64,000 nucleotides of DNA from Candidatus Adlerbacteria bacterium. Its GTDB lineage: Bacteria; Patescibacteriota; Minisyncoccia; Phycocordibacterales; SBAW01. Within the stretch, counting starts at the first letter, position 1. Every line of letters starts with the position of its first letter. Below are positions 37,785 through 57,245 of this stretch, in pieces. A program made the translations under genes and the position numbers. Below the pieces are notes generated by a model. It saw nothing but the letters and a program-made list of their open reading frames with translations, searched no databases and was not told where the DNA came from. The stretch covers positions 13,621 to 77,620 of the forward strand of contig JARIGK010000004.1 of the NCBI GenBank assembly GCA_029288895.1. The letters are read 5' to 3'.

Positions 37785-37791
37785 GCCAAAC

Positions 37792-37826
37792 AAAACCGCC
37801 GACCTTTTTGGGCCGGCGTTTTATTT
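37792..37826. terminator. bidirectional rho-independent terminator (copy A of a repeated terminator)
   Basis: aaaaccgccgacc-tttttg-ggccggcgtttt. Near-identical to the element at 39192..39226. Confidence 0.6.
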
Positions 37827-38567
37827 TTATAGAGTCTTCCAGATAAAGCTGTGCATACTTTTGAATAGCTCGGCGATATCCTTATTTTCTATCACTATTG
37901 CGGAAAGGTCGCGCAGGCTCATCAGGGCAACTTTGTCTCCATAAATAAGCACATCAACGTTTGATTTAAACGACTCGGGCAGAGTTTTTGAAAGTTTGCC
38001 GTTGCCCCCGTTCTTCTCGCGGATTTCTTTTATACGCTTTACGTACTTACTTTTTACGAACAGGTCGTAGCTTTTAAATGAATGTTCCCCCATCGTTTTG
38101 TCGAATGCGTCATACTCCGCTTCGCTAAAACTTTCAAAAAACCTATCAGCCGGGAAGATAGAATATCCATCCCCCACCGTCTTAAACAGGTCATCATAGA
38201 TGCGCGCCATCTCTCGCTTCCCTTCGTAAAATACAACATTTGGTTTGTTGGTTGCCTGCCCGCGCAATGTCGACATGGCCTCTACGTTTTTTTCGAACTC
38301 CCCAGTGCGTTTTTTGAAATCGTTCAATATTTCTTTTGGGTCATTTGCCGAATAGAATGTTCTCTTCCCTATCGGGACGCGGATAATAAAATTTTTTACA
38401 AGCAATGCTTCTAAGTGTTCATAACACGTGGCGCGTTTTATTCCTGTAGCGCGGGCGATGTCTGCCACGTCCATACGGCTGTGCCCTAGAAGGCATACAT
38501 ATATAGAAGCGGCCTTCTGCGGCAGCCCCACCCCCTCCAAAACCTCTATAAGTTGAGATTGTTCCAT
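37827..38567 (-). CDS. TrmB-family transcriptional regulator (paralog 1)
   Basis: N-terminal wHTH (ASIYVCLLGHSRMDVADIARATGIKRATCYEHLEAL) and a TrmB-like C-terminal domain. Confidence 0.7.
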   Translation of the reverse strand: MEQSQLIEVLEGVGLPQKAASIYVCLLGHSRMDVADIARATGIKRATCYEHLEALLVKNFIIRVPIGKRTFYSANDPKEILNDFKKRTGEFEKNVEAMSTLRGQATNKPNVVFYEGKREMARIYDDLFKTVGDGYSIFPADRFFESFSEAEYDAFDKTMGEHSFKSYDLFVKSKYVKRIKEIREKNGGNGKLSKTLPESFKSNVDVLIYGDKVALMSLRDLSAIVIENKDIAELFKSMHSFIWKTL

Positions 38568-38747
38568 ACGACCATTCTATAGGTTTTATAAAAAATGTCA
38601 ATAAAAGCGACATATTTTATCTTATTAAAATTAAAATACGTTGCTAAATAAGAGTATTTTAGCTACAAAAATATAATTTTTATACCTAAATCTTCATTTT
38701 GTTAGATACTTAATGCAGTTAGAACATTCAAATATAGGAGAGGTCCC

Positions 38748-39188
38748 ATGATCGAGTATCTCGCTTTCCACCCAGTGCTGGCAGCAATTTTTATCGAAAG
38801 TCTGATAGCGCTTTTCTGTCTAGCTATTACATCCGTATATGCCAAAGAAGGCTTTAAGTCCTGGCTTGGCAATGCGCTTGGGTTTGCAATAATCCCTGGT
38901 ATAGTTCTCCAACTTTTCCTTGTTCTTTGGTTTGGTCCGAATGGCCCAGCTGCTGATATAGAGCGTGCACGGCAACGGGCACAAACACATGGCAAAGTGC
39001 TTTGGGAGCTTGTGTATGAGCAAAAATATAGCTCATGTCTGGATGTTGCTTTGAGCTTCGAGAGCCCAGGAAAGGTATATTGGCACTCGCCTTTCCCTGA
39101 AGCAGAGCGGTGGAAAATATTGGTAATGTCGGACGAGCAAGCAGATGCTACGTTCAAGTGCCTAAAGCCTTTTTTCGAAAAGAAATAA
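38748..39188 (+). CDS. hypothetical membrane protein (146 aa)
   Basis: SD aggagagg. Three hydrophobic helices in the N-terminal half. Confidence 0.55.
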   Translation: MIEYLAFHPVLAAIFIESLIALFCLAITSVYAKEGFKSWLGNALGFAIIPGIVLQLFLVLWFGPNGPAADIERARQRAQTHGKVLWELVYEQKYSSCLDVALSFESPGKVYWHSPFPEAERWKILVMSDEQADATFKCLKPFFEKK

Positions 39189-39191
39189 ATC

Positions 39192-39226
39192 AAAACCGCC
39201 GACCTTTTGGGGCCGGCGGTTTTTTC
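39192..39226. terminator. bidirectional rho-independent terminator (copy B of a repeated terminator)
   Basis: aaaaccgccgacc-ttttg-gggccggcggtttttt. Hairpin shared by convergent genes. Confidence 0.6.
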
Positions 39227-39232
39227 TTTATC

Positions 39233-40848: not shown

Positions 40849-41757
40849 ATGGCAGAGAATCTAGCCCTCCTCAAGACGCAGTTTTTGGAGTATTTGGAGA
40901 TCGAAAAGGGTCGGAGCGTAAAAACGGTCGAAAATTACGACCGCTACCTCACCCGCTACCTGGCGTTTAGCAAAGTCACCTCCCCCACCAAACTGACAGA
41001 GCAAAGTGTGCGCGAGTTCCGTATCCACTTAAACCGCCAGCCAGGCACGAGTGGCTCGATGAAGCACAAAACGCAAAACTACTACATGATTAGTTTGCGT
41101 GCGTTTTTAAAGTTCTTGCGCAAGCGCGGGATCGAATCACTCAACCCCGAACGCATCGAGTTGGCAAAAGTGGGCGCGCGCGATTTGGATTTAATTACGT
41201 CAGACGAATTGAGTAGATTGATGAACGGCCCTAAAGGCGCTTCCCTCTCTGACTTGCGCGATCGCGCCATTCTCGAATTGTTTTTCTCAACCGGTTTGCG
41301 TGTCTCAGAGTTGTGCTCATTAAATAGAGACATCGATTTAAGCCGCGATGAGTTTTCTGTTCGCGGCAAAGGCGAAAAAGTGCGCGTCGTCTTCCTCTCT
41401 CCAGAAGCAAAAAAAGCTATTAAAGACTATTTAGATAAACGCGGCGATATCGAAGACGCGTTGTTTATCCAGATGGGCAAAAACGCCAAGAACGCGAAAG
41501 AGTTCCGCCTCACCCCGCGCTCCGTGGAGCGCCTCGTCAAAAAATATGCAACCAAAGCGGGCATTACGCGCAAAGTGACGCCGCACGTTATCCGCCACTC
41601 CTTCGCGACCGATCTTCTTCAAAATGGCGCCGACCTGCGTTCCGTCCAAGCCCTGCTTGGCCATTCCAACATCACGACAACGCAGGTCTACACCCACGTC
41701 ACCGACAAACACTTAGCCGAAGTCCACAAAAAATTCCACGGCCAAAGGAGGAAATAA
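40849..41757 (+). CDS. xerC: tyrosine site-specific recombinase XerC/XerD family
   Basis: N-terminal SAM-like domain. Catalytic R...HxxR...Y (HVIRHSFATDLL...LGHSNITTTQVYTHV). Confidence 0.85.
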   Translation: MAENLALLKTQFLEYLEIEKGRSVKTVENYDRYLTRYLAFSKVTSPTKLTEQSVREFRIHLNRQPGTSGSMKHKTQNYYMISLRAFLKFLRKRGIESLNPERIELAKVGARDLDLITSDELSRLMNGPKGASLSDLRDRAILELFFSTGLRVSELCSLNRDIDLSRDEFSVRGKGEKVRVVFLSPEAKKAIKDYLDKRGDIEDALFIQMGKNAKNAKEFRLTPRSVERLVKKYATKAGITRKVTPHVIRHSFATDLLQNGADLRSVQALLGHSNITTTQVYTHVTDKHLAEVHKKFHGQRRK

Positions 41758-42382: not shown

Positions 42383-43168
42383 ATGAATAAAATGACAAAC
42401 AAAAAAGAGAGACTAGGAGATGTAAGTTGGAAGTTGCAGCAACTTGGAATCCACGAGCATGATGCAGAGGTGTACATGCTTCTGCTCCAGCGCGGCGCAG
42501 AGATGAGTGGGGCTAAAATTGCCATTGCCCTATCGATGCACCGGCAGTATGTCTACCAAGGGCTGAAACGATTGCAGAAACTCGGGCTTGTAGAAGAAAT
42601 TCCAAATGGTGCACGAACGAAATATCGAGCTCTGCCACCGCAGCAACTTTCGCATGTTGCAAAAAAGAAACTGGAATACGCTGACTCTGCAGCGCGCGAG
42701 CTTGAGCTTATTTCTGCAATAGGTAGCGATCAGGATTTTGATATCTATCGCGGGACACAGCAAGTAATGCAATTTGAGGAGCAATTTCTCGATAGTCTTT
42801 CTGACGACGATGTGCAGTACATCATAGGTGGCAGCACACGCGCCTTCTTCCGTGTCTTTGGCGAACAGTACGAAGAGCTTTCTACTACTGCGCGTTCGCG
42901 CAATCTCAAAAGCTACTACTTGGCGTCACCAGATGATGTTGAGTTTTTGGAGCGTGTTAAAAAGGCGCAGCCCATGTACGAATTTCGTATCCTGAAAAAA
43001 CTTCCAGCAACGATTACGTCGACTGTGATCCGCAACAATAACGAAGTTAGTTTCTACAGTATGGGGAACCCGCCGCTTGTATATGTCATCAAATCTGAAA
43101 AAGTCGCAGCAGACTACAAAAAACTGTTCGACATTCTTTGGTCCATTGCCGAGCCGTATAAGGAATAA
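42383..43168 (+). CDS. TrmB-family transcriptional regulator (paralog 2)
   Basis: wHTH (AEVYMLLLQRGAEMSGAKIAIALSMHRQYVYQGLKRLQKLGLV) and TrmB-like C-terminal domain. Confidence 0.7.
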   Translation: MNKMTNKKERLGDVSWKLQQLGIHEHDAEVYMLLLQRGAEMSGAKIAIALSMHRQYVYQGLKRLQKLGLVEEIPNGARTKYRALPPQQLSHVAKKKLEYADSAARELELISAIGSDQDFDIYRGTQQVMQFEEQFLDSLSDDDVQYIIGGSTRAFFRVFGEQYEELSTTARSRNLKSYYLASPDDVEFLERVKKAQPMYEFRILKKLPATITSTVIRNNNEVSFYSMGNPPLVYVIKSEKVAADYKKLFDILWSIAEPYKE

Positions 43169-44482: not shown

Positions 44483-45283
44483 ATGAAGCTGATTTCCTGG
44501 AACGTAAACGGCATCCGCGCAGTGCACAACAAAAAACTCTTTGTGCCGTTTTTGGAAGAGTACAAGCCCGACATTTTATGTTTGCAGGAGACAAAAGCAC
44601 ACCAACATCAAAGCGAAGTCGATTTGCCCGACTACGAAGAGTACTGGAATAGTGCCGAAAAAAAGGGATACAGCGGCACAGCGATTTTTACAAAAACAAA
44701 ACCGCTCTCTGTCATACTTGGCATCCCAGAGGACATCGCAAAAAAATATAAGTTGAACGACGACGGCTACGGCGACCCAACAAAAGAGGGCCGCGTTATC
44801 GCGGCAGAATTTAAAAAGTTCTACGTGGTTACGGTGTATACGCCCAACTCCAAAGACGATCTCTCGCGCCTCACACTTCGCCACAAACAGTGGGACCCAG
44901 CGTTTTTGGCATACATGGAGCGTTTGCAAGAATCAAAGCCTGTCTTATTTTGCGGCGACTTAAACGTGGCGCACACCGCCATCGACTTAGCCAACCCCAA
45001 AGCAAACGTCGGCGAACATGGCTTTACCGACGAAGAACGCGAAGGCATCGACAAAATTTTGAAGGCTGGTTTCATCGACACATTCCGCCACCTGCACCCC
45101 GAAACACTTGGCGCCTATACGTGGTGGACGCACTGGGCAAATGCTCGCGCACGCAACGTCGGTTGGCGCATCGACTACTGGTTCGCTTCAAAAAAACTCG
45201 CGAAACATATAACAAGGGCAGAAATCTTGCCCGAAGTGATGGGCTCCGACCACTGCCCCGTACTCCTTGAGCTAGACCTCTAA
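44483..45283 (+). CDS. xth: exodeoxyribonuclease III (AP endonuclease)
   Basis: MKLISWNVNGIRA..., catalytic DLNVAH and SDHCPV motifs. Confidence 0.9.
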   Translation: MKLISWNVNGIRAVHNKKLFVPFLEEYKPDILCLQETKAHQHQSEVDLPDYEEYWNSAEKKGYSGTAIFTKTKPLSVILGIPEDIAKKYKLNDDGYGDPTKEGRVIAAEFKKFYVVTVYTPNSKDDLSRLTLRHKQWDPAFLAYMERLQESKPVLFCGDLNVAHTAIDLANPKANVGEHGFTDEEREGIDKILKAGFIDTFRHLHPETLGAYTWWTHWANARARNVGWRIDYWFASKKLAKHITRAEILPEVMGSDHCPVLLELDL

Positions 45284-46210
45284 CAAAGGGTCGATAAACT
45301 TCCACTGCGCACGGATATATTCTATCGATGGGAAGAGCGTGTGGTCGCCGGCCATTGCAGCCCTAAGTAACAGTTCGTATTCCGGAATTTTATTTGAATG
45401 CTCGCTGAATATTTTTATTGAGCCGTCTTTGAATATAAGTTCGACTTCTTTTTTATTTTCTGGCATCCGCTTCCCTGCTTCGAGAATAATTTTTATATCC
45501 CCTGCTCTCGTTTCAATTTTGAAATACGTTTCAGTCTCTGAATCTGCCGCAACACCTTTGGTGTCTTTGTAGCCGTCGTACTGCGTGCGTTCAATTGTTG
45601 TAGGCGCATCGGGCGTTGGCAGCGGCACAAGCTGCTTCAAAATCTGCAGCATGTGGTTTTGGCCGACATCGCGCAGCGTGCCGAGTTTGTCGTATGTGCT
45701 CCCCCGCTTCTCTACCCCAGCAGTTTCGAGCAGGCGGATGTGAATTTCTGCAATCGCTTCCCTCTCAGTATGTAACTCCCCTAACTCGCGCACCCAGTCT
45801 TTGGCCGCGTAGTGGTCGTTGATAAAAATATTTTGCTCGTCGGTGATGTCTTTGAGTAACGCATACAATTCCTCGGCCTCTTCCCCACTTCGGCCAAATG
45901 GCTTCTCGAGCATGATTTTTACATCCCGGCTAAAGCCTGCCGCTTTCATATTCAGGAGCGCTTCTTTATAGAGCGCCGGTGCGATGCAGAAATAAAACAG
46001 CGCCTCCTCCCCTGCCAGCTTTTCTTTTATATCCAAAAACGTCTGTAGCTCGCTTGTGTCGCCCTGCACAAAATCAAACTGTGATGGGATGTTCACTTCG
46101 TTCCGCGGCTTGCGCGAGACTCCAATAACGTCCAACTGCAGCTTCTCTAACGCTGGGATAACCTTCGCCCTCATCAAATCCCCCGTTACCCCGAATGCGA
46201 CGAATTTCAT
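45272..46210 (-). CDS. glucose-6-phosphate dehydrogenase-like protein, truncated (312 aa versus about 490 expected)
   Basis: G6PD N-terminal NAD(P) fold (GVTGDLMRAKVIPAL), EKPFG motif, DHY(A)AK and RDVGQNHMLQ motifs. Lacks most of the C-terminal domain. 12-nt convergent overlap with xth. Confidence 0.5.
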   Translation of the reverse strand: MKFVAFGVTGDLMRAKVIPALEKLQLDVIGVSRKPRNEVNIPSQFDFVQGDTSELQTFLDIKEKLAGEEALFYFCIAPALYKEALLNMKAAGFSRDVKIMLEKPFGRSGEEAEELYALLKDITDEQNIFINDHYAAKDWVRELGELHTEREAIAEIHIRLLETAGVEKRGSTYDKLGTLRDVGQNHMLQILKQLVPLPTPDAPTTIERTQYDGYKDTKGVAADSETETYFKIETRAGDIKIILEAGKRMPENKKEVELIFKDGSIKIFSEHSNKIPEYELLLRAAMAGDHTLFPSIEYIRAQWKFIDPLLEV

Positions 46211-46272
46211 ACTCTAACTATACGCCTCCCAAAAGAAAAAGCCGTCCCGATGAGCGGAACGGTTTTTGTGTC

Positions 46273-46539
46273 CTAGAACACACTCAGGACGTGGCCCCAC
46301 CATTCTTGCTGGAGCAGCCGCGGGTCGATTGTGGAGAGTGTACAGTGATGCCGGAGCATAAACCCACTGCCGCCAGAAAAAAGTATGCAGCCAAGATCCG
46401 CAATGAGGAAAATGGGCATCAACAACGGGAAAGGCCTTTGTCTGAGAAGCCCATTTCCGTAGTCCGAACAAAAGAAGAGCGTACAAGGCACTGCAGGAAA
46501 ACAGAGTGCCCACAGCAGAACAGTATCTTGAGTACACAT
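46273..46539 (-). CDS. small hydrophobic Cys-containing protein (88 aa) preceded by repeat-leader copy 1
   Basis: MCTQDTVLLWALCFPAVPCTLFFC... with SD aaggga. In frame inside track ORF 46273..46617. Confidence 0.35.
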   Translation of the reverse strand: MCTQDTVLLWALCFPAVPCTLFFCSDYGNGLLRQRPFPLLMPIFLIADLGCILFSGGSGFMLRHHCTLSTIDPRLLQQEWWGHVLSVF

Positions 46540-46555
46540 GCGAGTTTCCCTTGAG

Positions 46556-46632
46556 TATGAAAGTACTTCTATTCGAACGTTTTGCTCTATGAATCCACGA
46601 ACCATTCGCAGACTCAATTGAGAGAAGAAGAT
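46556..46632 (-). repeat. leader repeat copy 1 (divergent): core GAAAGTACTTCTATTCGAACGTTTTGCTCTATGAATCCA ... CAATTGAGAGAAG
   Basis: About 35/39 core identity to copies 2 and 3. Lies in the 5' region of the small gene 46273..46539. Confidence 0.55.
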
Positions 46633-46654
46633 AAAGCTTCTTCACATACACTAA

Positions 46655-47347
46655 CTACCCTTCCTTAGTTTTAAGAACAAAGGCAATAAAATCCGGATGT
46701 GCTTGGGTATCGAGTACCTCGCTTTCCGCAATGTCCAGAATCTGGAGTCCGTGCTTCTTAAATAGCTGTATGTAGTACGACAGCGGGCGGTGGTAGTCAG
46801 TAAATTCGATGCCGTTTTCATGCACAATCTTTTTATACTTGAATTCTTTGTCGTACTTTGGGTTCCACACATGTGAACGGATGCGTTTTGTTACAATGCC
46901 AACAGTTAAATAGTCGCTGCATGGGTTGCAAAGACTCACAATAATGGGCGCGCCATCTTTTGCGAGAATTTTTAAATTCTCAAGCATCACATCCTGGTCT
47001 TTTTTCTTGAGTATGCAGAGTACAAGGTTAGATGTTACAAGATCGAACTTTCCGGCAAGGGTCGGAAGCTTTTTTACAAATTCTGTGTTGGTATAAAACC
47101 TAGGTTTTGTATATTGAGATTTTGCTTGTGCCACCATTCCATCGGCTTCGTCGAAGGCCTCAGTCGCATATCCTTTCTGTGATACTGCGTCTGCAAACTC
47201 TCCCCATCCGCAGCCATAGTCGAATGCTGTTCCAGACTTTGGGGCGTATTTTTTAATAAGCGAAAATAGTTTTTCATTCAAAACGCGGTTTTTTGCGTCT
47301 TGGATTTTCGGTGCCTTTTTAGATAATGTATTCCATTCGTTTGCCAT
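46655..47347 (-). CDS. class I SAM-dependent methyltransferase (standalone paralog of the C-terminal domain of the upstream fusion protein)
   Basis: Motif I FDYGCGWGEF. About 50% identity to residues about 570-800 of the 804-aa neighbour. Confidence 0.75.
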   Translation of the reverse strand: MANEWNTLSKKAPKIQDAKNRVLNEKLFSLIKKYAPKSGTAFDYGCGWGEFADAVSQKGYATEAFDEADGMVAQAKSQYTKPRFYTNTEFVKKLPTLAGKFDLVTSNLVLCILKKKDQDVMLENLKILAKDGAPIIVSLCNPCSDYLTVGIVTKRIRSHVWNPKYDKEFKYKKIVHENGIEFTDYHRPLSYYIQLFKKHGLQILDIAESEVLDTQAHPDFIAFVLKTKEG

Positions 47348-47351
47348 ATAG

Positions 47352-49766
47352 TTATTTTTTGCGGAGCACAAAGTAGATAAAGTCAGGGAAGAGTTGTGTG
47401 CCCAAGGTGTCGCTTTCAGCAATGTCTACAATCTCGAGACCATGTTTCTTGAAGAGTTCGACATAATATTCAAGCGGGCGATGATAGTCTGTAAACTCAA
47501 GGCCGTTTTCATGCACAATTTTAGTATGCTGGAATTCTTTTTCGTACGATGCGTTCGCCGGAAGTATACGATGCGTTACGATGCTGTCGCGCATGTCGTC
47601 AAAGGCCGGGTGGCAAAAACTTAGTAGCAGCGTGCCATTATCATTGAGCAAGCGCTTCATATTTTCTATCAACACCCCGTGCTCTTCTTTTTTGGTAATA
47701 CAGAGCCAAAGGTTCGAGTAGACCATGTCGAACTTATGCTCAAGTAACGGAAGTGTTTTGTAGAATTCTTCTTTTGTAAGGAAAGTCGGCTTTGTAAATT
47801 TCTTTTTTGCAGAAGCAAGCAGACGCTCTGATTCGTTAATTGCAGTCACAGCGTAGCCTTTGTCTGCAAGGATGTTTGCATGTTCGCCCCACTCGCAGTA
47901 GTAATCGAATATTTTCCCGCCTTTAGAAACATATGTGCGCACGAGTTTTGTAAATATTCCATCGAATACAAGGCCTTTTGCCTTTTGAATTTTCTTTGTC
48001 TGTGCCGCAATTGTTGACCACTCATTGGCGATAGCTTCCATGCGCGCCTCACGACTTGTCATATGTGTTGGTTTTTCAACGCGGAAGCACCCAACGTATA
48101 GCACGTCGATACCAGTACGCAGGAAGGTGTTTAGTGCGTCGCGCGGAGTCTCTGGCACCGATTCGTTGTCATTAAGTGATGTGTTTAACACAATTGGAAC
48201 ACCAGTTTCTTTAAAGAAAGCTGAGATAAGTGCGTGATAGCGCCCGTTATCTTCTTTGCGTACTGTTTGGATGCGCGCACTACCATCAAAATGTGTCCCT
48301 GAAGGCATTTTATCTGGATGCAACACGTCAGCATTCAGTATCATGTACGGTGCAGGCACTGAAATGTCGAACCACTTTGATGCTTCTTCCGCGAGGACGC
48401 TTGGCGCAAATGGGCGGAAATGTTCGCGATGTTTAACTTTGTGATTCAGGATGTCTTTCATCTCCGGATTGCGCGGGTCTGCAACAATGCTGCGATTGCC
48501 CAATGCGCGCGGGCCCATTTCGCTACGGCCCTGAAACCATCCAACTACTTTGCCCTCTGCAATATCATGGGCCGCTGCCGTTGTCAGTGTTGAGAGATCA
48601 AGTTTTTTATGTGTGATCATGGGTTCATTCGAAAGCGCATCGAGTATTTCCGCTTCGCTATACTCCTTGCCTTGGTAGACGGACATCTCTTTACGGACTG
48701 CATGGGCGCTATCGAATACGTTCAGTGCCCAGAATGCATCGCCCAAACATTGACCGCTGTCCCCCGCTGCCGGCTGGATGTAAATGTTTTCAATGCCAGC
48801 GTGGTCGAGCAATGCACGGTTAGACACTGCGTTGAGTCCTACGCCGCCCGCGATGCAGAGATTTTTTATGCCAGTTTTCTCTACGAGGTGTTTTACTTTG
48901 TGTATGAGCGCGCGGTCTAATTCACGTTGTATGAGCCACGCTACATCTTCTATGTCCTCATTTATTTCTTCAGTTGGTTTGCGCGCAGATATATTTATGC
49001 CGTGTTCAGCAAGCCACCGCTCAATAACTTTAGGAGAACCTTCGCGTGTGCGGTCGCTGTCGGGCACTAAACATGTAACTTTACCTTCTGGCAAAAGCTC
49101 AAACACCCGCACGTCTTTAAAACGATTGCGTTTTGAGCCATATGCAGAAAGGCCCATCAACTTACCTGCATATTTGTAGCCTGGAAATCCGCAGAAATAT
49201 GTAAAGTAGCGATACACGCCACCAAATCCGTTTTCCTGCGGACCTATTTCCTCACGTTCAAGCAGATCTAATTCTTTTCCATTGCCTAAAAAGTAACTGC
49301 TGTGCTCGAACTGATTTTCCCAATAGCGGTTTTGATTTTTTGTTCCTGACTTAAAACTATTTCCAAGCATATTGCCATCGCCGTCGAGAACCATAACAAT
49401 CGCTTTTTCAAATGGTGATGGCCAAAATGCGCTATATGCATGCGAAAGATGGTGCCCGCACACTCGTATTTTTGAAAGCGGCACGCTAAACCCGCGTTTC
49501 TCGAGTTGTTTTTGAACATCCTGTTCGCGTGCTTTGATATCGAGACATGAGCTTGCGACAAAGAGATCTATGTCATCTATAGAAAGATTGTTGTTTTCAA
49601 GTATGTAATTGATGCTCTGCACAAAGCCGGCATCGTATTGCTTACGAGTAAGACGCTCTTCATTGATAAGCATCTTTACTTCCCCATCTACTACCAAACA
49701 CGCGCCGCCGTTGTCGAGCGGAAGCCCGTATGAGTTATGTTCTAGATTAAATCCCAGTATTTTCAT
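47352..49766 (-). CDS. NodU/CmcH-family carbamoyltransferase fused to a C-terminal class I SAM methyltransferase domain (804 aa)
   Basis: Carbam_trans N/C domains with CGHHLSHAYSAF and the Kae1/YrdC-like fold. C-terminal FDYYCEWGEH methyltransferase domain. Confidence 0.8.
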   Translation of the reverse strand: MKILGFNLEHNSYGLPLDNGGACLVVDGEVKMLINEERLTRKQYDAGFVQSINYILENNNLSIDDIDLFVASSCLDIKAREQDVQKQLEKRGFSVPLSKIRVCGHHLSHAYSAFWPSPFEKAIVMVLDGDGNMLGNSFKSGTKNQNRYWENQFEHSSYFLGNGKELDLLEREEIGPQENGFGGVYRYFTYFCGFPGYKYAGKLMGLSAYGSKRNRFKDVRVFELLPEGKVTCLVPDSDRTREGSPKVIERWLAEHGINISARKPTEEINEDIEDVAWLIQRELDRALIHKVKHLVEKTGIKNLCIAGGVGLNAVSNRALLDHAGIENIYIQPAAGDSGQCLGDAFWALNVFDSAHAVRKEMSVYQGKEYSEAEILDALSNEPMITHKKLDLSTLTTAAAHDIAEGKVVGWFQGRSEMGPRALGNRSIVADPRNPEMKDILNHKVKHREHFRPFAPSVLAEEASKWFDISVPAPYMILNADVLHPDKMPSGTHFDGSARIQTVRKEDNGRYHALISAFFKETGVPIVLNTSLNDNESVPETPRDALNTFLRTGIDVLYVGCFRVEKPTHMTSREARMEAIANEWSTIAAQTKKIQKAKGLVFDGIFTKLVRTYVSKGGKIFDYYCEWGEHANILADKGYAVTAINESERLLASAKKKFTKPTFLTKEEFYKTLPLLEHKFDMVYSNLWLCITKKEEHGVLIENMKRLLNDNGTLLLSFCHPAFDDMRDSIVTHRILPANASYEKEFQHTKIVHENGLEFTDYHRPLEYYVELFKKHGLEIVDIAESDTLGTQLFPDFIYFVLRKK

Positions 49767-49808
49767 AGTTTTTCTTTATGAGTCTGCGAATTTAGTTCGC
49801 AGACTCAA

Positions 49809-50033
49809 TCAAGGGGAGAAATTACTTTCTCCCAGTTCATAGGTGAGAGCATGGCGCGTACCACTTTCGCAGTAGCGCTCCAGAAGCATTTCTGCTTCCT
49901 CGACCCTTCCCTGGCGGGTAAGGTACATGCACATCGCCTGAACGGTCTCGTCGTTCAAACGATGCTGCACCCAGCAGCGTTCGTCTCCCAAAATAGAGGA
50001 GACAATAACGCCGACGTAGACTTTATGAGCCAT
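49809..50033 (-). CDS. small hypothetical protein (75 aa) preceded by repeat-leader copy 2
   Basis: SD aaaggaggg then ATG (MAHKVYVGVIV...). The track ORF 49809..50114 extends into the repeat. Confidence 0.4.
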   Translation of the reverse strand: MAHKVYVGVIVSSILGDERCWVQHRLNDETVQAMCMYLTRQGRVEEAEMLLERYCESGTRHALTYELGESNFSP

Positions 50034-50073
50034 AGGCCCTCCTTTCTTGCCGCGGGATTGCAGCCATGTTGTG

Positions 50074-50150
50074 TGGAAAGTACTTCTATTTGAACGTTTT
50101 GCTCTATAAGCCATCGATTTCTACAATCAAAGGCTTAATTGAGAGGAGAA
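50074..50150 (-). repeat. leader repeat copy 2: TGTGTGGAAAGTACTTCTATTTGAACGTTTTGCTCTATAAGCCATC ... AAAGGCTTAATTGAGAGGAGAAGG
   Basis: 45/46 identical to copy 3 over the core. Lies in the 5' UTR of gene 49809..50033. Confidence 0.6.
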
Positions 50151-50246
50151 GGTGTCAGTTTCTCCTTGATAGTTTTGGCCTTACTGCCCCGATTTCTCGG
50201 GTACTCAGACCTTCTGTTGCCAACCCGGATATCAGCCGGGTCCGGA

Positions 50247-50642
50247 CTAGAGGCGACACACAATCTCATCTTCTGGTTCCCACGGGAGGCCTTTAGGGCC
50301 CCGTAAGTCCCACTTGTGAGACCATGTACCATCGACTTTTAGGTCGATAGTACATACGTTTCCACAAAGCATGAGAAGGTGAAGTTTTCTAGATTGTTTT
50401 TGCCCCTTTAAGGCATCCACAATCGTAAAAATGTCGGCTAGATCACACCTTGCACGGCCAGCTTTTTCGACAAGTTTCCATACTTTAGAAACAGGCGAAG
50501 TCTCTGTGAGATAGAGACTACGAGCTGGCAACTTAACCAAGCGAACCAACTTGATCTCCTGGCGAGTATCCATGACCGTAAGGTCATAGTAGAGTTCGGC
50601 GAAGATAGGGAAGTTGATAGCGGCGGCATCGATACGGGCCAT
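50247..50642 (-). CDS. hypothetical protein (131 aa) preceded by repeat-leader copy 3
   Basis: SD gaggaaa. No family assigned. Confidence 0.45.
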   Translation of the reverse strand: MARIDAAAINFPIFAELYYDLTVMDTRQEIKLVRLVKLPARSLYLTETSPVSKVWKLVEKAGRARCDLADIFTIVDALKGQKQSRKLHLLMLCGNVCTIDLKVDGTWSHKWDLRGPKGLPWEPEDEIVCRL

Positions 50643-50681
50643 TTGTATTTCCTCTGCCCTATTTGGGCGTTGCTTGTATGT

Positions 50682-50777
50682 GTGAAAGTACTTCTATTTG
50701 AACGTTTTGCTCTATAAGCCATCAATTTGGTTGGAATTAAAGGCTTAATTGAGGGGAGGTCGATTGCTCGACCTCCC
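50682..50777 (-). repeat. leader repeat copy 3 plus adjacent perfect 10-bp hairpin (gggaggtcga-ttgc-tcgacctccc)
   Basis: Core identical to copy 2. The hairpin at 50754..50777 may terminate the upstream small gene. Confidence 0.6.
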
Positions 50778-50780
50778 GAA

Positions 50781-50927
50781 CTAGTTCTTCTGCCCTCGTG
50801 TGGCGATGAGGCCCCATACCAGTGCCACAACAACGACGGCAGCGATAAGGCAGATGATCACTACGGCGCCCTGGCCATCCGACTGAGACGCGGCATTGGA
50901 TACGGCGTATGCTTGGTAACCCTTCAT
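50781..50927 (-). CDS. small membrane protein (48 aa)
   Basis: MKGYQAYAVSNAASQSDGQGAVVIICLIAAVVVVALVWGLIATRGQKN. SD gaggagag. The motif CGCCCAATAGGGCAGAGGA upstream is shared with gene 50247..50642. Confidence 0.3.
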   Translation of the reverse strand: MKGYQAYAVSNAASQSDGQGAVVIICLIAAVVVVALVWGLIATRGQKN

Positions 50928-51072
50928 GACTCTCTCCTCTGCCCTATTGGGCGGTTTTTCGATGTACTGAGTGAACTGATATAAGAATAGCACGGTAAAA
51001 CAGTAATGTCAATAAATATTGATGATAAAAAATTGACAGAAAAGCATTGATAATGCTAGAGTTTTAGAGAAG

Positions 51073-51837
51073 ATGTCAAAAAATATTGATGATAATCCAA
51101 ATAAGGAGTTGCTGGCAAAGCTCGCGGAATTAGGCCTCTCCGATAAGGAGGCTCGGGTCTATATGGCCCTCCTGCCCCGACAGGATACGGGTACTTCTAA
51201 CCTTATTCGGGCCACCGGCCTCCATGGGCAGTTTGTATACACCGCTTTGGAGCGGCTCGAAGAGATGGGCCTGGCCAAACACGTGGTCCAAAACGGCCGG
51301 AAGAAGTTTAGTGCCGGCAGCCCCGAACGCATTCTGGCCTTGGTTGAGGAAAAGAAGCTCGCCGCCCAGCAGGTGGTCCGCCAGCTTGCACAGCAGTTTG
51401 CCGGCAAGCACGAACAGAGCTTCGAGGTCTTCCAGGGCGATACATCCTTTATTGCCCATGAGTTTGCCCTGCTTGAGGCCTGCCCGGATGGCAGCTCTAT
51501 AGACATCATTGCCGGCAGTGGCGACAAATATGTGGACATTTTTGGGGTGGAACTGAACGAATATGAGCGTATCCGTATAGAAAAGAAGGTCGCCTTGCGC
51601 TATATAAGCACCTCTGGCAACCAGAATTACTTGAAAATAATGGCTCAAACTAGGCCTTTTTTCGAATATCGGGTCCTCCCCCAGTCGGCGCCCCAGGTAG
51701 ACACAGATATATATGAGGACAAGATCAATTTTATGATATACGGCCAGCCCGTGGTCTCGTTTACGTTTACAAATAAGGAGGTGGCGAAGGGATACAAAGG
51801 CTTTTTTGATGTTTTGTGGAATTTATCCACTCAATAA
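51073..51837 (+). CDS. TrmB-family transcriptional regulator (paralog 3)
   Basis: wHTH (ARVYMALLPRQDTGTSNLIRATGLHGQFVYTALERLEEMGLA) and TrmB C-terminal domain. Confidence 0.7.
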   Translation: MSKNIDDNPNKELLAKLAELGLSDKEARVYMALLPRQDTGTSNLIRATGLHGQFVYTALERLEEMGLAKHVVQNGRKKFSAGSPERILALVEEKKLAAQQVVRQLAQQFAGKHEQSFEVFQGDTSFIAHEFALLEACPDGSSIDIIAGSGDKYVDIFGVELNEYERIRIEKKVALRYISTSGNQNYLKIMAQTRPFFEYRVLPQSAPQVDTDIYEDKINFMIYGQPVVSFTFTNKEVAKGYKGFFDVLWNLSTQ

Positions 51838-53740: not shown

Positions 53741-53812
53741 GCTCCTGTGGTGAAATGGATATCACGGCTGGCTTCGAACCAGCTGTTCCAGGTTCGAGTC
53801 CTGGCGGGAGCA
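53741..53812 (+). tRNA. tRNA-Arg (anticodon TCG)
   Basis: Manual cloverleaf: acceptor GCTCCTG/CGGGAGC (one G-U), D arm GTGA-AATGGATA-TCAC, anticodon stem GCTGG/CCAGC with loop CTTCGAA, T arm CCAGG-TTCGAGT-CCTGG. Confidence 0.85.
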
Positions 53813-53876
53813 CACGTTCGACCAGTTTTGCTCGCTCAGTGTGTAGAGCTGTGCTATAGTCTTCATTGTTCAGAAC

Positions 53877-53947
53877 GCGGATATGGTTTAGTGGTAGAAC
53901 ACCTCCTTGCCAAGGAGGAGACGGGAGTTCGATTCTCCCTATCCGCA
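53877..53947 (+). tRNA. tRNA-Gly (anticodon GCC)
   Basis: Acceptor GCGGATA/TATCCGC, anticodon stem CCTCC/GGAGG with loop TTGCCAA, T arm GGGAG-TTCGATT-CTCCC. Confidence 0.85.
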
Positions 53948-54089
53948 CCGAGGTTTCTCAAAGCCCCCTTATAAGACACATTTGTGGATAAAAGTGGGGA
54001 GAAGTGTATAAAAGACGTCTTTTAAGGCTTTTGTACGTTTCATATGTAACGTTTCCCTCACAAAGGTTCACGTGTAACACCTGTGGGGT

Positions 54090-54473
54090 ATGGAAAAGAC
54101 TAAAAAGCGTAGAATAGGTGACATTGGCGAAGAGGTAGCTTCGAAATATCTAGTAAAGAAGGGCTATTCTATAGTCGGGAGGAACTATCTCAAACCTTGG
54201 GGTGAGTTGGATATCATAGCCACGAAGGGTGGGAAACTACACTTTGTAGAGGTAAAGACAGTTTCACGTGAATCGGGTAGGGGGCAAAAAGGCCGCCCCG
54301 AGGACAATATGCATGAATATAAGTTGAAGAGGCTGCACCGAGCTATCCAGACCTACCTGCTCGAGAAGAAGATGGGGAGTGGGGTAGAGTGGCAGCTCGA
54401 TCTGGCTTGTGTTTATTTGGATTTTTCGACTAAGCGCGCTACAGTTGAGCTCTTGGAGAATATTATCCTCTGA
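54090..54473 (+). CDS. yraN: YraN-family (UPF0102) endonuclease
   Basis: IGDIGEEVASKYL...GELDIIA...EVKT motif pattern of the YraN family. Confidence 0.75.
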   Translation: MEKTKKRRIGDIGEEVASKYLVKKGYSIVGRNYLKPWGELDIIATKGGKLHFVEVKTVSRESGRGQKGRPEDNMHEYKLKRLHRAIQTYLLEKKMGSGVEWQLDLACVYLDFSTKRATVELLENIIL

Positions 54474-54498
54474 GATGTCGTAAAGGACATAAAAGACA

Positions 54499-54572
54499 CG
54501 GGACGTAGTATAGTGGTAGTACACTTGCTTTGGGAGCATGTAGTCCGAGTTCGATTCTCGGCGTCCCGACCA
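54499..54572 (+). tRNA. tRNA-Pro (anticodon TGG), CCA encoded
   Basis: Acceptor CGGGACG/CGTCCCG, anticodon loop TTTGGGA (U33, G37), T arm CCGAG-TTCGATT-CTCGG. One T-T mismatch in the anticodon stem. Confidence 0.75.
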
Positions 54573-54585
54573 AAAACAATAGGAT

Positions 54586-55455
54586 ATGCAACGTATAACG
54601 CTTACGACACAGCCAGCAGCAGGGTATGAACTGCTCGATTCTGGAAGGGAAGAGAAGCTCGAGCGTTTTGGAGACGTTGTATTGCGCCGCCCCGACCCGC
54701 AAGCGTTGTGGGAAAAGCACTTGGGCGAAGGGGAGTGGAATGCTGCAAACGGCACCTACGTGCGCGAAAGTGGGGAAGCGGGGAAATGGACAGGCACTAT
54801 CCCCAAAGAATGGCAGATCGAATTTGGCGGCCTCAATTTTTTACTAAAACCAACAAGTTTTAAACACACCGGTTTGTTTCCCGAGCAGGAGCAGAATTGG
54901 CACTGGAGCGCAGAACAAATTAAAGGGGCGGAAAGGGAAGTGAACGTACTCAACCTGTTTGGCTATACCGGCGGGGCGACGCTTGCGGCAGCAAAAGCTG
55001 GTGCGAAAGTCACTCACGTTGATGCGTCGAAGACTGCAGTAGCCTGGGCGCGCCACAATGCCGAGCTTTCGGGTTTACAAGATGCGCCGGTGCGCTGGAT
55101 CGTCGAAGACGTGCTTACATTTGTCGAGCGTGAGATAAAGCGCGGCACGAAGTACGATGCCATGGTGATGGACCCACCAGCCTTTGGCCACGGGCCAGCA
55201 GGGGAATTGTGGAAAATCGAAGAGAGCTTCTTGCAATTGATGAAGCTACTGCCCGAGCTTCTTACAGAAAAGCCATTGTTTGTTTTGATAAACGGCTATG
55301 CAGCAGGATATTCGCCATTGGCATTTGCATATAACTTAGAGCCGCTCAAGCAGAAGTTTGGCGGCGATATCGAATACGGTGATATAGAAATTGCCGAAAA
55401 AGACGGCCGCGTGTTGCCGTGCGGTATCTTTGCACGGTGGAAAACTCAGGCTTGA
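54586..55455 (+). CDS. class I SAM-dependent methyltransferase (RlmI/RlmK-like rRNA methyltransferase family)
   Basis: GYTGGATLAAAKAGA SAM motif and DPPAF motif IV. Confidence 0.6.
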   Translation: MQRITLTTQPAAGYELLDSGREEKLERFGDVVLRRPDPQALWEKHLGEGEWNAANGTYVRESGEAGKWTGTIPKEWQIEFGGLNFLLKPTSFKHTGLFPEQEQNWHWSAEQIKGAEREVNVLNLFGYTGGATLAAAKAGAKVTHVDASKTAVAWARHNAELSGLQDAPVRWIVEDVLTFVEREIKRGTKYDAMVMDPPAFGHGPAGELWKIEESFLQLMKLLPELLTEKPLFVLINGYAAGYSPLAFAYNLEPLKQKFGGDIEYGDIEIAEKDGRVLPCGIFARWKTQA

Positions 55456-55656
55456 CCGTACAGCAGAGCGGGCGTACGGTAGAGATATGGAACGCGCAGC
55501 AAGCACAAATTACTTTTTTAAGTGGTTTACCTCGTCCCTCGAGGGTTTTGTGCTGCGGTAGTTCATACGAATACCGAAACAACCACAAGACTCTCGAAAG
55601 GGGGTCTTGTTTCGTTTTGGATGGTTCTGGTTCTTTTTGAAAGAGGAGGAGAGAAA

Positions 55657-55944
55657 ATGAAGCACTTTCTGTGGCCTGATGTAGATGGACATCCGGCATT
55701 TAGGGAAAAGGACCCTGAGCTCAAACACATGAGTGTTGCTCTCCAGTATGGTATCGCTACCGTACAGTCGAGAGACGCGACCTTGGAAGACCTGCAGGCC
55801 ATCAAGGCCAATATCGAAAAGCTCTACGAAGGTAAGCCTACAAGCGGCTATACCCAAAGCGTTATCAATGCGCTTGAGCAAAGGCTCATTCCACCGGGGC
55901 CTAAGGAGATGCAAGGTTTCGAGCACCAAGCTCTCACCGATTAA
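55657..55944 (+). CDS. hypothetical protein (95 aa)
   Basis: Strong SD gaggaggagag. Terminator downstream. Confidence 0.45.
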   Translation: MKHFLWPDVDGHPAFREKDPELKHMSVALQYGIATVQSRDATLEDLQAIKANIEKLYEGKPTSGYTQSVINALEQRLIPPGPKEMQGFEHQALTD

Positions 55945-55951
55945 GTGCGAA

Positions 55952-55980
55952 GCCGAGTAGCAATGCTCGGCTTTTTCTTT
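55952..55980. terminator. bidirectional rho-independent terminator
   Basis: gccgag-tagcaatg-ctcggc followed by tttttcttt. Confidence 0.6.
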
Positions 55981-57168
55981 TTATTTTTTAAGGGCTTTGA
56001 AGAGTGTTTGGGTTTCGCTTGCGCCTGTTGTTGCGGCAAAGTCCGCAGCTTTTTGTTTGAGGTCGCCTTTAAGCAGGGGTATAAGCCCACCCAACCCCGC
56101 TTCGTTTAAACTTCTATTGATATAGGCGAGGGTAATGCCATGCAGTTCGCGAGTAGCAGTGCTGTCGCCCGCGCTTGCGGTTGCAACAATGGCCTGCAGC
56201 GCGCCATCTTGCATGCGCACAATACCGCCACCCGATGAACCCGCTTGCGAAACAACGGTGCCGCCCACAGACACAACATCAGGGTAGCCACGGTCGTCGA
56301 ACGCGTAGATTTGCTCGACGGTCGAAATAGCCGTGCTGATGTAGAGACTCATTTCAATGGTGATGCCTTGCAAATAGCCCGCCGGGTAGCTTGCGATCAT
56401 CATAGGCAGGCCTTGCACGGGCTCGTCCAAAGTTAATGGGAGGTAGGGGAAGTGTGCGGGCAATGTGCCATTTGGGTCGGTTGTCGAGGTGATAAGCAAA
56501 AAGGCGTAGTCATTTTCGCCCGTACCCAGTTCGGTATCTGAGGTAATCTGCGATGCGTTTGCATCGACCCATGCGGGCGGCAAGTAGAGGAGTTGTGCAT
56601 GATATTTCGGTGTTGCGGGGCTGCCGGTGCGCACGACGCAGTCGACATTGCCGGGCACCAGGTAGTCGCGCAACAACAAGTATTGCCCAACATGCGCATT
56701 TGTCAGTACAACGCCCGCGCCCGAAATCAGCACGCCGCTGCCAGAGATTGGGTTTAAGTATCCGCCGCCGCGGGTGGTGCACAAAATATTAACTGCTGCC
56801 GCACGCGCCATGTCGTTGACTTGTGATTGGGGCAGGGCAAGGGGGATAACCACAGATGTCGCTAATGCCGAAGTAGAACTTTGTCCCGGTTCGCCAGAAG
56901 CCGCGGATATGTTCTGCGCAGGTTTGGTTGTCTTCGGCGTGCTAGTTGCAATAAGGTTCGCCGTTTTCTTATTTTTAACAATAGGGAAAGAATGAGTGAC
57001 AGGTGTCGTTGAGGTTGCAGTCGACACGACCGTAACAGCAGGGTGGGGGACAAAGCCAGCAAACACGCCGTGCGCTGTCAGGAAGAGCGAAAGGAGAGCG
57101 TGTTTGAGAAATGCCAACGCAGCTTGCATAGGCTCAGTATACAATTTAGTCTGTAGAAGTTCGCGCAA
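55981..57168 (-). CDS. secreted trypsin-like (S1 family) serine protease
   Basis: Signal-peptide-like N-terminus. His motif TNAHV and Ser motif GSSGGG. True start possibly MQAALAF at 57129. Confidence 0.7.
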   Translation of the reverse strand: MRELLQTKLYTEPMQAALAFLKHALLSLFLTAHGVFAGFVPHPAVTVVSTATSTTPVTHSFPIVKNKKTANLIATSTPKTTKPAQNISAASGEPGQSSTSALATSVVIPLALPQSQVNDMARAAAVNILCTTRGGGYLNPISGSGVLISGAGVVLTNAHVGQYLLLRDYLVPGNVDCVVRTGSPATPKYHAQLLYLPPAWVDANASQITSDTELGTGENDYAFLLITSTTDPNGTLPAHFPYLPLTLDEPVQGLPMMIASYPAGYLQGITIEMSLYISTAISTVEQIYAFDDRGYPDVVSVGGTVVSQAGSSGGGIVRMQDGALQAIVATASAGDSTATRELHGITLAYINRSLNEAGLGGLIPLLKGDLKQKAADFAATTGASETQTLFKALKK

Positions 57169-57174
57169 TAAAAA

Positions 57175-57245
57175 GCGGGATTAGTTTAGTGGTAGAACAT
57201 CAGTTTTCCAAACTGAGAGTGCCGGTCCGATTCCGGCATCCCGCA
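57175..57245 (+). tRNA. tRNA-Gly (anticodon TCC)
   Basis: Acceptor GCGGGAT/ATCCCGC, anticodon stem TCAGT/ACTGA with loop TTTCCAA, T arm GCCGG-TCCGATT-CCGGC. The low-GC island begins immediately downstream. Confidence 0.85.

Follow-up and report, generated by a model that had tools for sequence, protein, structure and literature searches.

A structured repeat at the seams of a gene array in a variable gene slot of Candidatus Adlerbacteria

Organization of the gene array

A 64-kb stretch of DNA from Candidatus Adlerbacteria (candidate phyla radiation (CPR)/Parcubacteria), hereafter called the window, was analyzed for a repeated element that lies between the genes of a minus-strand array. The array comprises five blocks (D, C, B, a carbamoyltransferase/methyltransferase fusion gene with a second methyltransferase gene, and A), and each of its four seams carries one copy of the element. 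Three copies are full (E1, E2, and E3), and one is without the 3′ third (Edeg). The element, referred to below as the module, features two hairpins (H1 and H2) followed by a tail; it is read on the minus strand, as are all of the array genes, and all coordinates are those of the window. Two relatives, L001/L003 (CAWCNA010000009) and L004 (JBAXLB010000002), were used for comparison. Their CCA-adding enzyme and TrmB proteins are 80–87% identical to those in the window, and the synteny is the same; the position that the array occupies is called the slot. The features of the array, listed in the direction of its transcription and preceded by the divergent regulator gene, are as follows.

51073..51837, plus strand: TrmB-family regulator, divergent from the array promoter; 85–87% identical in the two relatives
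50984..51012, minus strand: array promoter of the sigma-70 type (TTGACA, 17 nt, TATTCT, with TG), divergent from trmB and conserved in both relatives
50935..50954, minus strand: slot leader, first copy, before ORF (open reading frame) D; small hairpin GCCC-AATA-GGGC, then a Shine-Dalgarno sequence
50781..50927, minus strand: ORF D, block 1; 48 aa, hydrophobic
50680..50777, minus strand: copy E3, between ORF D and ORF C; covariance-model score 90.1 bits; H1 at 50754-50777 (10 bp), linker with outer helix and H2 at 50710-50753, invariant tail ATAGAGCAAAACGTTCAAATAGAAGTACTTTC at 50684-50715
50650..50669, minus strand: slot leader, second copy, before ORF C and directly after E3
50247..50642, minus strand: ORF C, block 2; 131 aa; the slot's resident gene, with a 65%-identical homologue in L001
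50165..50180, minus strand: slot 3′ motif GGCCAAAACTATCAAG, directly before H1 of E2; precedes a canonical terminator in L001 and L004
50071..50166, minus strand: copy E2, between ORF C and ORF B; 90.8 bits; H1 at 50144-50166, H2 at 50107-50137, tail at 50076-50107
49809..50036, minus strand: ORF B, block 3; 75 aa, orphan, with a strong Shine-Dalgarno sequence
49768..49833, minus strand: partial copy Edeg, at the junction of ORF B and the carbamoyltransferase gene; 55.5 bits (E-value 3e-9); H1 at 49814-49833, H2 at 49779-49807 (a perfect 12-bp stem), then CATAAAGAAAAAC, with the ATG at 49766
46655..49766, minus strand: block 4, lower-GC island containing the fusion gene and a paralogous methyltransferase gene
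47352-49766, minus strand: carbamoyltransferase-methyltransferase fusion, 804 aa
46655-47347, minus strand: methyltransferase, paralogous to the fusion
46555..46643, minus strand: copy E1, 3′ of the methyltransferase gene; 87.9 bits; H1 at 46624-46643, H2 at 46590-46616, tail at 46559-46590 with one substitution
46273..46539, minus strand: block 5, “ORF A”, 88 aa, a doubtful gene
46232..46262, minus strand: array terminator, canonical and intrinsic; 8-bp GC-rich stem, then CTTTTTCTTT; ends the array

A preliminary description of this DNA had reported three clear repeats and a fourth, degenerate one, all in a single orientation. Both the copies and their common minus-strand sense were borne out. 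The start that it gave for copy 1 was exact, those for copies 2 and 3 were a few bases off, and the degenerate copy is Edeg. It had also placed the copies in the 5′ regions of small genes; they are actually intercistronic and lie upstream of the start codons.

A consensus scan located one good promoter (51012-50984) and one terminator (46262-46242) for the whole array. The copies lie 230–4400 nt downstream of this sole promoter. No sigma-70-like site was found in any copy, nor was any minus-strand terminator. Being without a promoter or terminator of its own, the module should therefore be transcribed inside one mRNA; the earlier proposal that it resides within transcripts, on the sense strand, thus agrees with the single promoter/terminator pair predicted around the array.

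The genes between the seams are mostly of obscure identity. None of ORFs C, B, A, and D had a convincing match in Pfam, NCBIfam, or PADLOC. Only two homologues of ORF C were found, and its AlphaFold model was unusable (predicted local distance difference test score 42.6). “ORF A” scores negatively for codon usage in each of the six frames, and a search of 1.8 billion representatives yielded no convincing homologue; the ca. 290 nt that separate E1 from the terminator may be the remnant of a gene or non-coding. Among the small genes that had been placed downstream of the copies, the 88-aa gene A is therefore doubtful. ORF B reads through H1 of Edeg, which occupies its last codons, and stops at a TGA made by the linker variant CTTGATT (49809-49835), which suggests that the end of ORF B was remodeled by the junction. 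The genes of block 4 have GC contents of 46% and 42%, as opposed to ca. 50% for the window, and they are flanked by E1 and Edeg; the bracketing of a low-GC island noted earlier is thus correct. Pairs of carbamoyltransferase-methyltransferase and methyltransferase genes occur elsewhere in bacteria in unrelated contexts, without the module.

Architecture and folding of the module

On the coding strand, the module is ca. 95–105 nt long and has four parts: H1, a linker, H2 with an outer helix, and the tail. H1 is a hairpin of 6–10 bp with a purine-rich 5′ arm and a pyrimidine-rich 3′ arm, and its sequence is different in every copy. The linker conforms to CTYRATT (CTCAATT in the full copies, CTTGATT in Edeg). 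H2 is a 12-bp hairpin set inside a 3-bp outer helix (CTC/GAG; CTT/AAG in Edeg). The tail, ATAGAGCAAAACGTTCRAATAGAAGTACTTTC, is 32 nt in length, nearly invariant, and A/U-rich; it is succeeded by a spacer of 19–42 nt, a Shine-Dalgarno sequence, and the next start codon. At the other end, H1 begins 3 nt from the stop codon of ORF D, about 80 nt from that of ORF C, and 11 nt from that of the methyltransferase gene. The similarity beyond the core that had been described extends over ca. 100 nt, and the block TTAATTGAG(A/G)GGAG that had been included in it represents the linker plus the 3′ arm of H1.

Edeg retains H1, H2, and CATAAAGAAAAAC. Beyond this point, only 5 of 26 tail positions match, and the ATG of the carbamoyltransferase gene follows two bases later. 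The similarity stops at AAAAC|; in the full copies, GTTC comes next. This loss is abrupt, occurring 12–13 nt past H2 at the edge of the lower-GC island.

The minimum-free-energy folds contained the same H1 and H2 in all four copies, and RNAalifold recovered the helices of both hairpins independently. H2 is more stable on the sense strand than on the other strand in three of the four copies (E1, -14.9 vs. -5.5 kcal/mol; E2, -15.0 vs. -9.5 kcal/mol; E3, -11.5 vs. -9.6 kcal/mol). The difference in E1 is due to several G-U pairs, which form on the sense strand alone. For E2, the fold predicts pairing of the tail end (CUUUCC) with the Shine-Dalgarno region of ORF B; E1 and E3 do not share this pairing. 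The palindromes AAGTACTT and AACGTT, which had been pointed out as possible operator half-sites, are present within the invariant 32-nt tail. Matches to AAGTACTT are over-represented (5, as compared to 0.8 expected), and three of them fall within copies. When the tail was inspected by eye for dif-like symmetry, the arms agreed at only 6 of 11 positions.

Covariation and uneven conservation

H2 and the outer helix together comprise 15 pairs; 96.7% of their cells in the four-copy alignment were paired, and six pairs had changed on both sides. In a control in which the 3′ partners were slid by 1–3 columns, 19–45% of cells were paired, and no pairs had changed on both sides. Two H2 sequence types are discernible, one shared by E2 and E3 and the other by E1 and Edeg. 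Conservation is distributed unevenly: E1 and E2 agree at only 13 of 24 stem positions (54%), as opposed to 36 of 37 positions (97%) in the linker, AT+GAG, and tail. E2 and E3 differ at eight positions, five of them in the 9 loop columns (P = 4e-4); the stems account for just two, which together make up one compensatory pair. E1 has a mosaic appearance, with an H2 of the Edeg type and a tail of the E2/E3 type.

By these alignments, the structure of H2 is under selection and is kept by compensatory changes. The covariation and stability favor the sense strand, and the module therefore would matter as a single strand of sense polarity; the acting strand would be mRNA or, less probably, single-stranded DNA. 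Neither the twin hairpins nor the covariation of H2 had been noticed before. The covarying H2, the absence of the ATG from E1, and the differing frames also substantiate the earlier contention that conservation acts on nucleotides and structure, not on a peptide. A conserved peptide, MAYRAKRSNRSTF, was considered and rejected: its ATG is missing in E1, its frame with respect to the downstream ORF is not the same in all copies, and it has no preceding Shine-Dalgarno sequence.

Searches for further copies and for known families

Matches to the 32-nt core, GAAAGTACTTCTATTTGAACGTTTTGCTCTAT, occur on the plus strand at 46559, 50076, and 50684 with 1, 0, and 0 mismatches, respectively; no such matches were found in 100 dinucleotide-preserving shuffles. 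A covariance model was built from the four copies, and all scans with it were run with the filters off. In the 64-kb window, the full copies scored 87.9–90.8 bits, and the best match outside of the copies scored 13 bits. All four copies lie within 4.3 kb, and the model located no further copy in the other ca. 60 kb of the window, none in the syntenic loci of the two relatives (L001 and L004), and nothing at four loci that harbor carbamoyltransferase-methyltransferase homologues. A 25-mer from the core had 0 matches in contigs from GTDB (one genome per species), and 22-mers had 0 matches in JGI metagenome contigs and IMG/VR. Probes of 16–20 nt yielded 10 viral and 4 metagenome matches, none of which the covariance model scored as the element; the 4 metagenome matches agree over the 20-mer alone. 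A blastn search of plasmids and phages with the whole element returned no match. The repeat family is real, uncatalogued, tiny, and local, and it is known from four copies in one metagenome-assembled genome.

Several identities for the module were checked. At the Rfam gathering threshold, only tRNAs passed in the window; at E-values up to 10, the region 46200-51100 gave two chance matches to snoRNAs (small nucleolar RNAs), neither of them on a copy. On the sense strand, the sequence after H1 is CUCAAUU or CUUGAUU and that after H2 is AUAGAGCAAAAC, such that neither hairpin has a U-tract. The real terminators of this genome (46232-46262, 37788-37828, and 39188-39228) do have U-tracts. Derivation of the module from the array promoter was rejected, as the alignment of the core was no better than that of shuffles (p about 0.9). 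The ends of the module (the 5′ arm of H1 or CTCAATT at one side, ...GTACTTTCACAC at the other) are not inverted repeats, and there is no flanking duplication. The module is not a promoter, a terminator, a member of an Rfam family, a canonical attC site, or a MITE (miniature inverted-repeat transposable element). The possibility of a dispersed small-RNA or MITE family, raised in the preliminary description, finds no backing: no copy is present elsewhere in the window, in the syntenic loci of the relatives, or in the collections searched, and terminal inverted repeats are missing.

The slot in related genomes

The slot is common to the three Adlerbacteria and consists of the TrmB-divergent sigma-70-type promoter, the leader, the 3′ motif GGCCAAAACTATCRAG, and a terminator hairpin. 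It was noted at 50928-51015 in the window, 4675-4770 in L001, and 9850-9950 in L004. The leader, CGCCCAAT(A)GGGCAGAGG, is a small hairpin with a Shine-Dalgarno sequence and is conserved in L001 and L004 before different genes. A shared 20-mer, CGCCCAA(A)TAGGGCAGAGGA, had been reported near the starts of two array genes; it is present at 50650-50669 and 50935-50954, and what had been missed is that it constitutes this genus-conserved slot leader in duplicate. The contents of the slot are as follows.

L004: one methyltransferase gene
L001: one gene, the 65%-identical homologue of ORF C, directly behind the promoter and leader
This window: five blocks, namely D, C, B, carbamoyltransferase-methyltransferase plus methyltransferase, and A

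The slots of the relatives thus contain one gene each, and they have no seam and no copy of the repeat. H1 of E2 is found at the exact position of the relatives' terminator hairpin, and the U-tract is replaced by the rest of the module. This correspondence, like the presence of one copy at every seam of the array, had escaped the earlier reading.

The notion that every block is a complete slot unit with its own 3′ motif was rejected; only the C block shares the motif significantly with the relatives, and the ends of D, B, and the methyltransferase gene do not. The 3′ half of E2 resembles the 3′ region of the slot itself (z about 3.6, p 0.004–0.008), but this resemblance fails correction for 20 comparisons, and the corresponding values for E1 and Edeg are not significant. 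An origin of the module from the slot 3′ region, or from the terminal part of a methyltransferase gene such as the one in L004, is accordingly suggestive for E2 but not robust, and it is retained as a lead only.

Other features of the window

A second low-GC block (37827-39193, 42% GC) contains a TrmB paralogue and a 163-aa ORF. At each of its ends lies a copy of a 41-nt bidirectional terminator (37788-37828 and 39188-39228), and the two copies are 88% identical. At the corresponding place in L001 (10095-10185), a NYN gene is directly followed by that for PNPase, with a single terminator. This island with its duplicated terminator suggests that blocks in this genome may be integrated through recombination at 3′ modules with a hairpin, a process that leaves those modules in two copies.

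TrmB-family paralogues number three within 14 kb (37827-38567, 42383-43168, and 51073-51837), and at least the first is in an inserted block. Near the third, a 23-nt direct repeat (51006-51028 and 51073-51095) contains the palindrome TCAATAAATATTGA, which is imperfect (TCAAAAAATATTGA) in the second copy. These palindromes overlap the -35 box of the array promoter and the trmB start codon, and a similar sequence occurs at the same place in the relatives. The repeat is likely a candidate operator pair for TrmB.

The sole tyrosine recombinase in the window is encoded at 40849-41757, ca. 5 kb from the array. It scored 137.8 with TIGR02249 (cut-off 265) and 245.6 with XerA (cut-off 220); it is of the Xer type, and its gene is syntenic in L001, which has no array.

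Some further observations concern the surroundings of the array. The fusion gene and the free methyltransferase gene share a repeat (46719-46865 and 47410-47556) that is 77% identical over 147 nt. Where homologues of the fusion occur in other uncultured bacteria, the next gene is LOG/lysine-decarboxylase-like and/or a methyltransferase gene. Between the array terminator and the ExoIII gene lies a gene for a short (312 aa) glucose-6-phosphate dehydrogenase-like protein (45272-46210); it is part of the variable region, because it is absent from that position in both relatives. On the other side, in 53741-57245, four tRNA genes adjoin the gene for the CCA-adding enzyme.

Comparison with known systems

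The layout is most like that of an integron cassette array, including CALINs (clusters of attC sites lacking integrases). A structured site is present at each junction of unrelated, mostly small or orphan, promoterless ORFs; the array has one orientation and a single promoter; the stem sequence varies under a kept structure with a strand bias; and the array is absent in close relatives. What defines an integron is nonetheless missing. There is no IntI in the window, and the module has no R′′/L′′/L′/R′ boxes. It possesses instead a 32-nt unpaired invariant tail and a preceding second hairpin, H1, and no more than four sites are known. The helix at the base reads CTC/GAG (CTT/AAG in Edeg), with GTTC unpaired ca. 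7 nt past it. In the sequences and folds, no consistent pairing was found between the sequence 5′ of H1 and the tail.

The module also resembles the short, hairpin-forming repeats that are located between cistrons (REP/BIME, ERIC, RUP, and Correia elements). Repeats of these families are co-transcribed, are known to stabilize upstream mRNA segments, and act as substrates for recombination. They differ from the module in being dispersed, with tens to hundreds of copies genome-wide; the module is confined, within the window, to one array and has a long unpaired tail. The RNase III R-sites of phage T7 provide another likeness, as they are repeated stem/internal loop/stem structures between the cistrons of one long transcript and leave a hairpin at the upstream 3′ end. 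The shape of H2 (a 3-bp helix, an internal loop, and a 12-bp helix) is compatible with a putative RNase III cleavage site; in contrast to such sites, the helix of the module is shorter (15 bp in all), and its conservation resides mainly in the single-stranded tail. Finally, H1 stands in the exact place of an intrinsic terminator's hairpin in the relatives, but neither H1 nor H2 has a U-tract behind it on the sense strand.

Interpretation

The reading that we favor, at somewhat less than an even chance, is that the module is a co-transcribed intercistronic coupler whose copies spread through the recombination events by which the blocks were stacked. It is preferred because the sense-strand covariation, the missing U-tracts, and the single promoter/terminator pair together point to a module kept for a function in mRNA. 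The module would couple cistrons at the RNA level. With H1 at the terminator position and devoid of a U-tract, transcription would run on into the added block; the twin hairpins would define or protect the 3′ end of the upstream mRNA segment, and the invariant single-stranded tail, which precedes the next cistron, may be recognized by a nuclease or an RNA-binding factor. The copies themselves would have been spread as blocks were stacked. Their positions at the seams point to a process at the DNA level that copied or carried the module at each block addition, as do the abrupt loss of similarity in Edeg, the mosaic E1, and the lack of the module in the single-gene relatives. A Campbell-type, homology-driven recombination at the module seems more likely than the action of a dedicated integrase. 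The similarity of the 3′ half of E2 to the slot 3′ region weakly fits a local origin.

A number of points weigh against this coupler. We infer co-transcription, processing, and any trans-acting factor. A general RNA-processing signal is expected in other operons as well, and the module is absent from the other ca. 60 kb. The invariant tail, at 32 nt, exceeds what is typical for a known nuclease site, and it is dispensable upstream of the carbamoyltransferase gene, where Edeg is without it. The near-identity of E2 and E3 could reflect a recent duplication or gene conversion rather than selection. The resemblance to the slot 3′ region does not survive correction for multiple comparisons, and the family comprises four copies only, in a single metagenome-assembled genome.

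Two other explanations share the emphasis on recombination, and both are unlikely to a similar degree. The module could be a site-specific recombination site analogous to attC, acting as a folded single strand (H2 with its conserved flank) with a crossover near AAAAC|GTTC, such that promoterless cassettes would be captured singly behind the fixed promoter by a recombinase other than the integron's. The occurrence of one site per seam in a single orientation behind one promoter, the strand-biased folding of a structure kept while its stem sequence varies, the mosaic E1, the single-gene relatives without a site, and the break in Edeg 12–13 nt past H2 at the island's edge would all be accounted for. 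The Xer-type recombinase, on the other hand, is syntenic in the array-less L001, and no integron integrase is encoded in the window; there are no R′′/R′ boxes (RYYYAAC/GTTRRRY) at the base of the helix, and it is the sense strand that folds better, whereas attC sites act as the bottom strand. Moreover, 20–25 nt are conserved past the putative crossover, far more than in attC, and the contig, phage, and plasmid collections scanned held no identical cassettes or sites. The more elaborate proposal, that slot and module form an integron-like cassette-capture platform of CPR bacteria without an integron integrase, is slightly less probable again; in it, the folded strand would be recognized by the Xer-type recombinase or one encoded outside of the window, recombining near AAAAC|GTTC to stack promoterless genes behind a regulated promoter. 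At the opposite extreme, the copies could be non-functional scars, i.e. a piece of the slot's 3′ untranslated region and terminator that was duplicated locally by illegitimate or homologous recombination, with the copies alike through recency or gene conversion. The strict locality of the family, the near-identity of E2 and E3 outside of the loop, the suggestive similarity of E2 to the slot 3′ region, and the parallel duplication of a terminator around the other island (37.8–39.2 kb) fit with such scars. Scarring does not explain the six pairs changed on both sides, or stem differences between E2 and E3 that amount to one compensatory pair; stems that are 54% identical between flanks that are 97% identical (E1 vs. 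E2) are unlike the product of neutral drift or uniform gene conversion, and four different H1 sequences form a hairpin at the same place. The suggestion that the copies are att-like boundary repeats of an inserted element is partly upheld, in that the two copies at the edges of the island look like recombination seams; simple att duplicates are not supported, since these two copies differ and some of the differences leave the hairpin pairing intact.

The remaining explanations are improbable. A double-stranded DNA operator, in which a regulator dimer, for instance of one of the three TrmB paralogues, would bind AACGTT and AAGTACTT to control each downstream gene, would make sense of two palindromes in an invariant 32-nt stretch, of the over-representation of AAGTACTT, and of the three TrmB-family genes in the window. 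Yet no promoter at or near any copy is available for it to act on, the sole promoter being 230–4400 nt upstream, and the sense-strand-only G-U pairs in H2 point to a single-stranded form. The best candidate site for the adjacent TrmB is the other palindrome, TCAATAAATATTGA, on the -35 box and trmB start, and the proposal of the preliminary description that the copies serve as operators for this regulator is therefore not supported. A cis-regulatory 5′ leader (a riboswitch, an attenuator, or a protein-binding leader) that governs only the translation or stability of the downstream small genes, unrelated to the building of the array, has about the same low probability as the operator. In its favor are the location 19–42 nt upstream of three start codons, the conserved structure with a conserved single-stranded tail, and the predicted CUUUCC pairing with the Shine-Dalgarno region of ORF B in E2. 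That pairing is not conserved in E1 and E3, an alternative-pairing (switch) architecture is missing, and Rfam gave no match at E-values up to 10; the downstream genes are mutually unrelated, one of them probably being no gene, and in Edeg the half containing H1 and H2 stays with the upstream ORF. Least probable, and very much so, is a mobile element, small and non-autonomous (of the MITE, REP, or IS200/IS605-derived kind), that inserts beside terminator-like hairpins. Seen in this way, the module is AT-rich and about 80 nt long, contains a hairpin, and always abuts a hairpin (H1), and E2 and E3 are nearly identical with unrelated flanks. The module has no terminal inverted repeats and no target-site duplication, however; its four copies are all within 4.3 kb, the remaining ca. 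60 kb and the syntenic loci of the relatives contain none, the core is unmatched in three contig collections, and no transposase was found among the neighboring ORFs scanned against Pfam.

Significance

Taken as a whole, the sequence comparisons define a real, covarying, uncatalogued element that is tied to a variable gene slot and appears akin to structured intercistronic or junction repeats. If it is only the scar of a local duplication, it is a small curiosity. CPR bacteria have very small genomes, and the ways in which they gain and express accessory genes are poorly understood. The three genomes compared here, all of one genus, share a promoter, a leader, and a terminator around different cargo, and one of them stacks five blocks with marked seams. 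If the module is a coupler or a recombination site that enables this stacking, it would represent a simple cassette system outside of the integron paradigm, and the covariance model would provide a sequence and structure handle for variable gene slots in CPR metagenomes.

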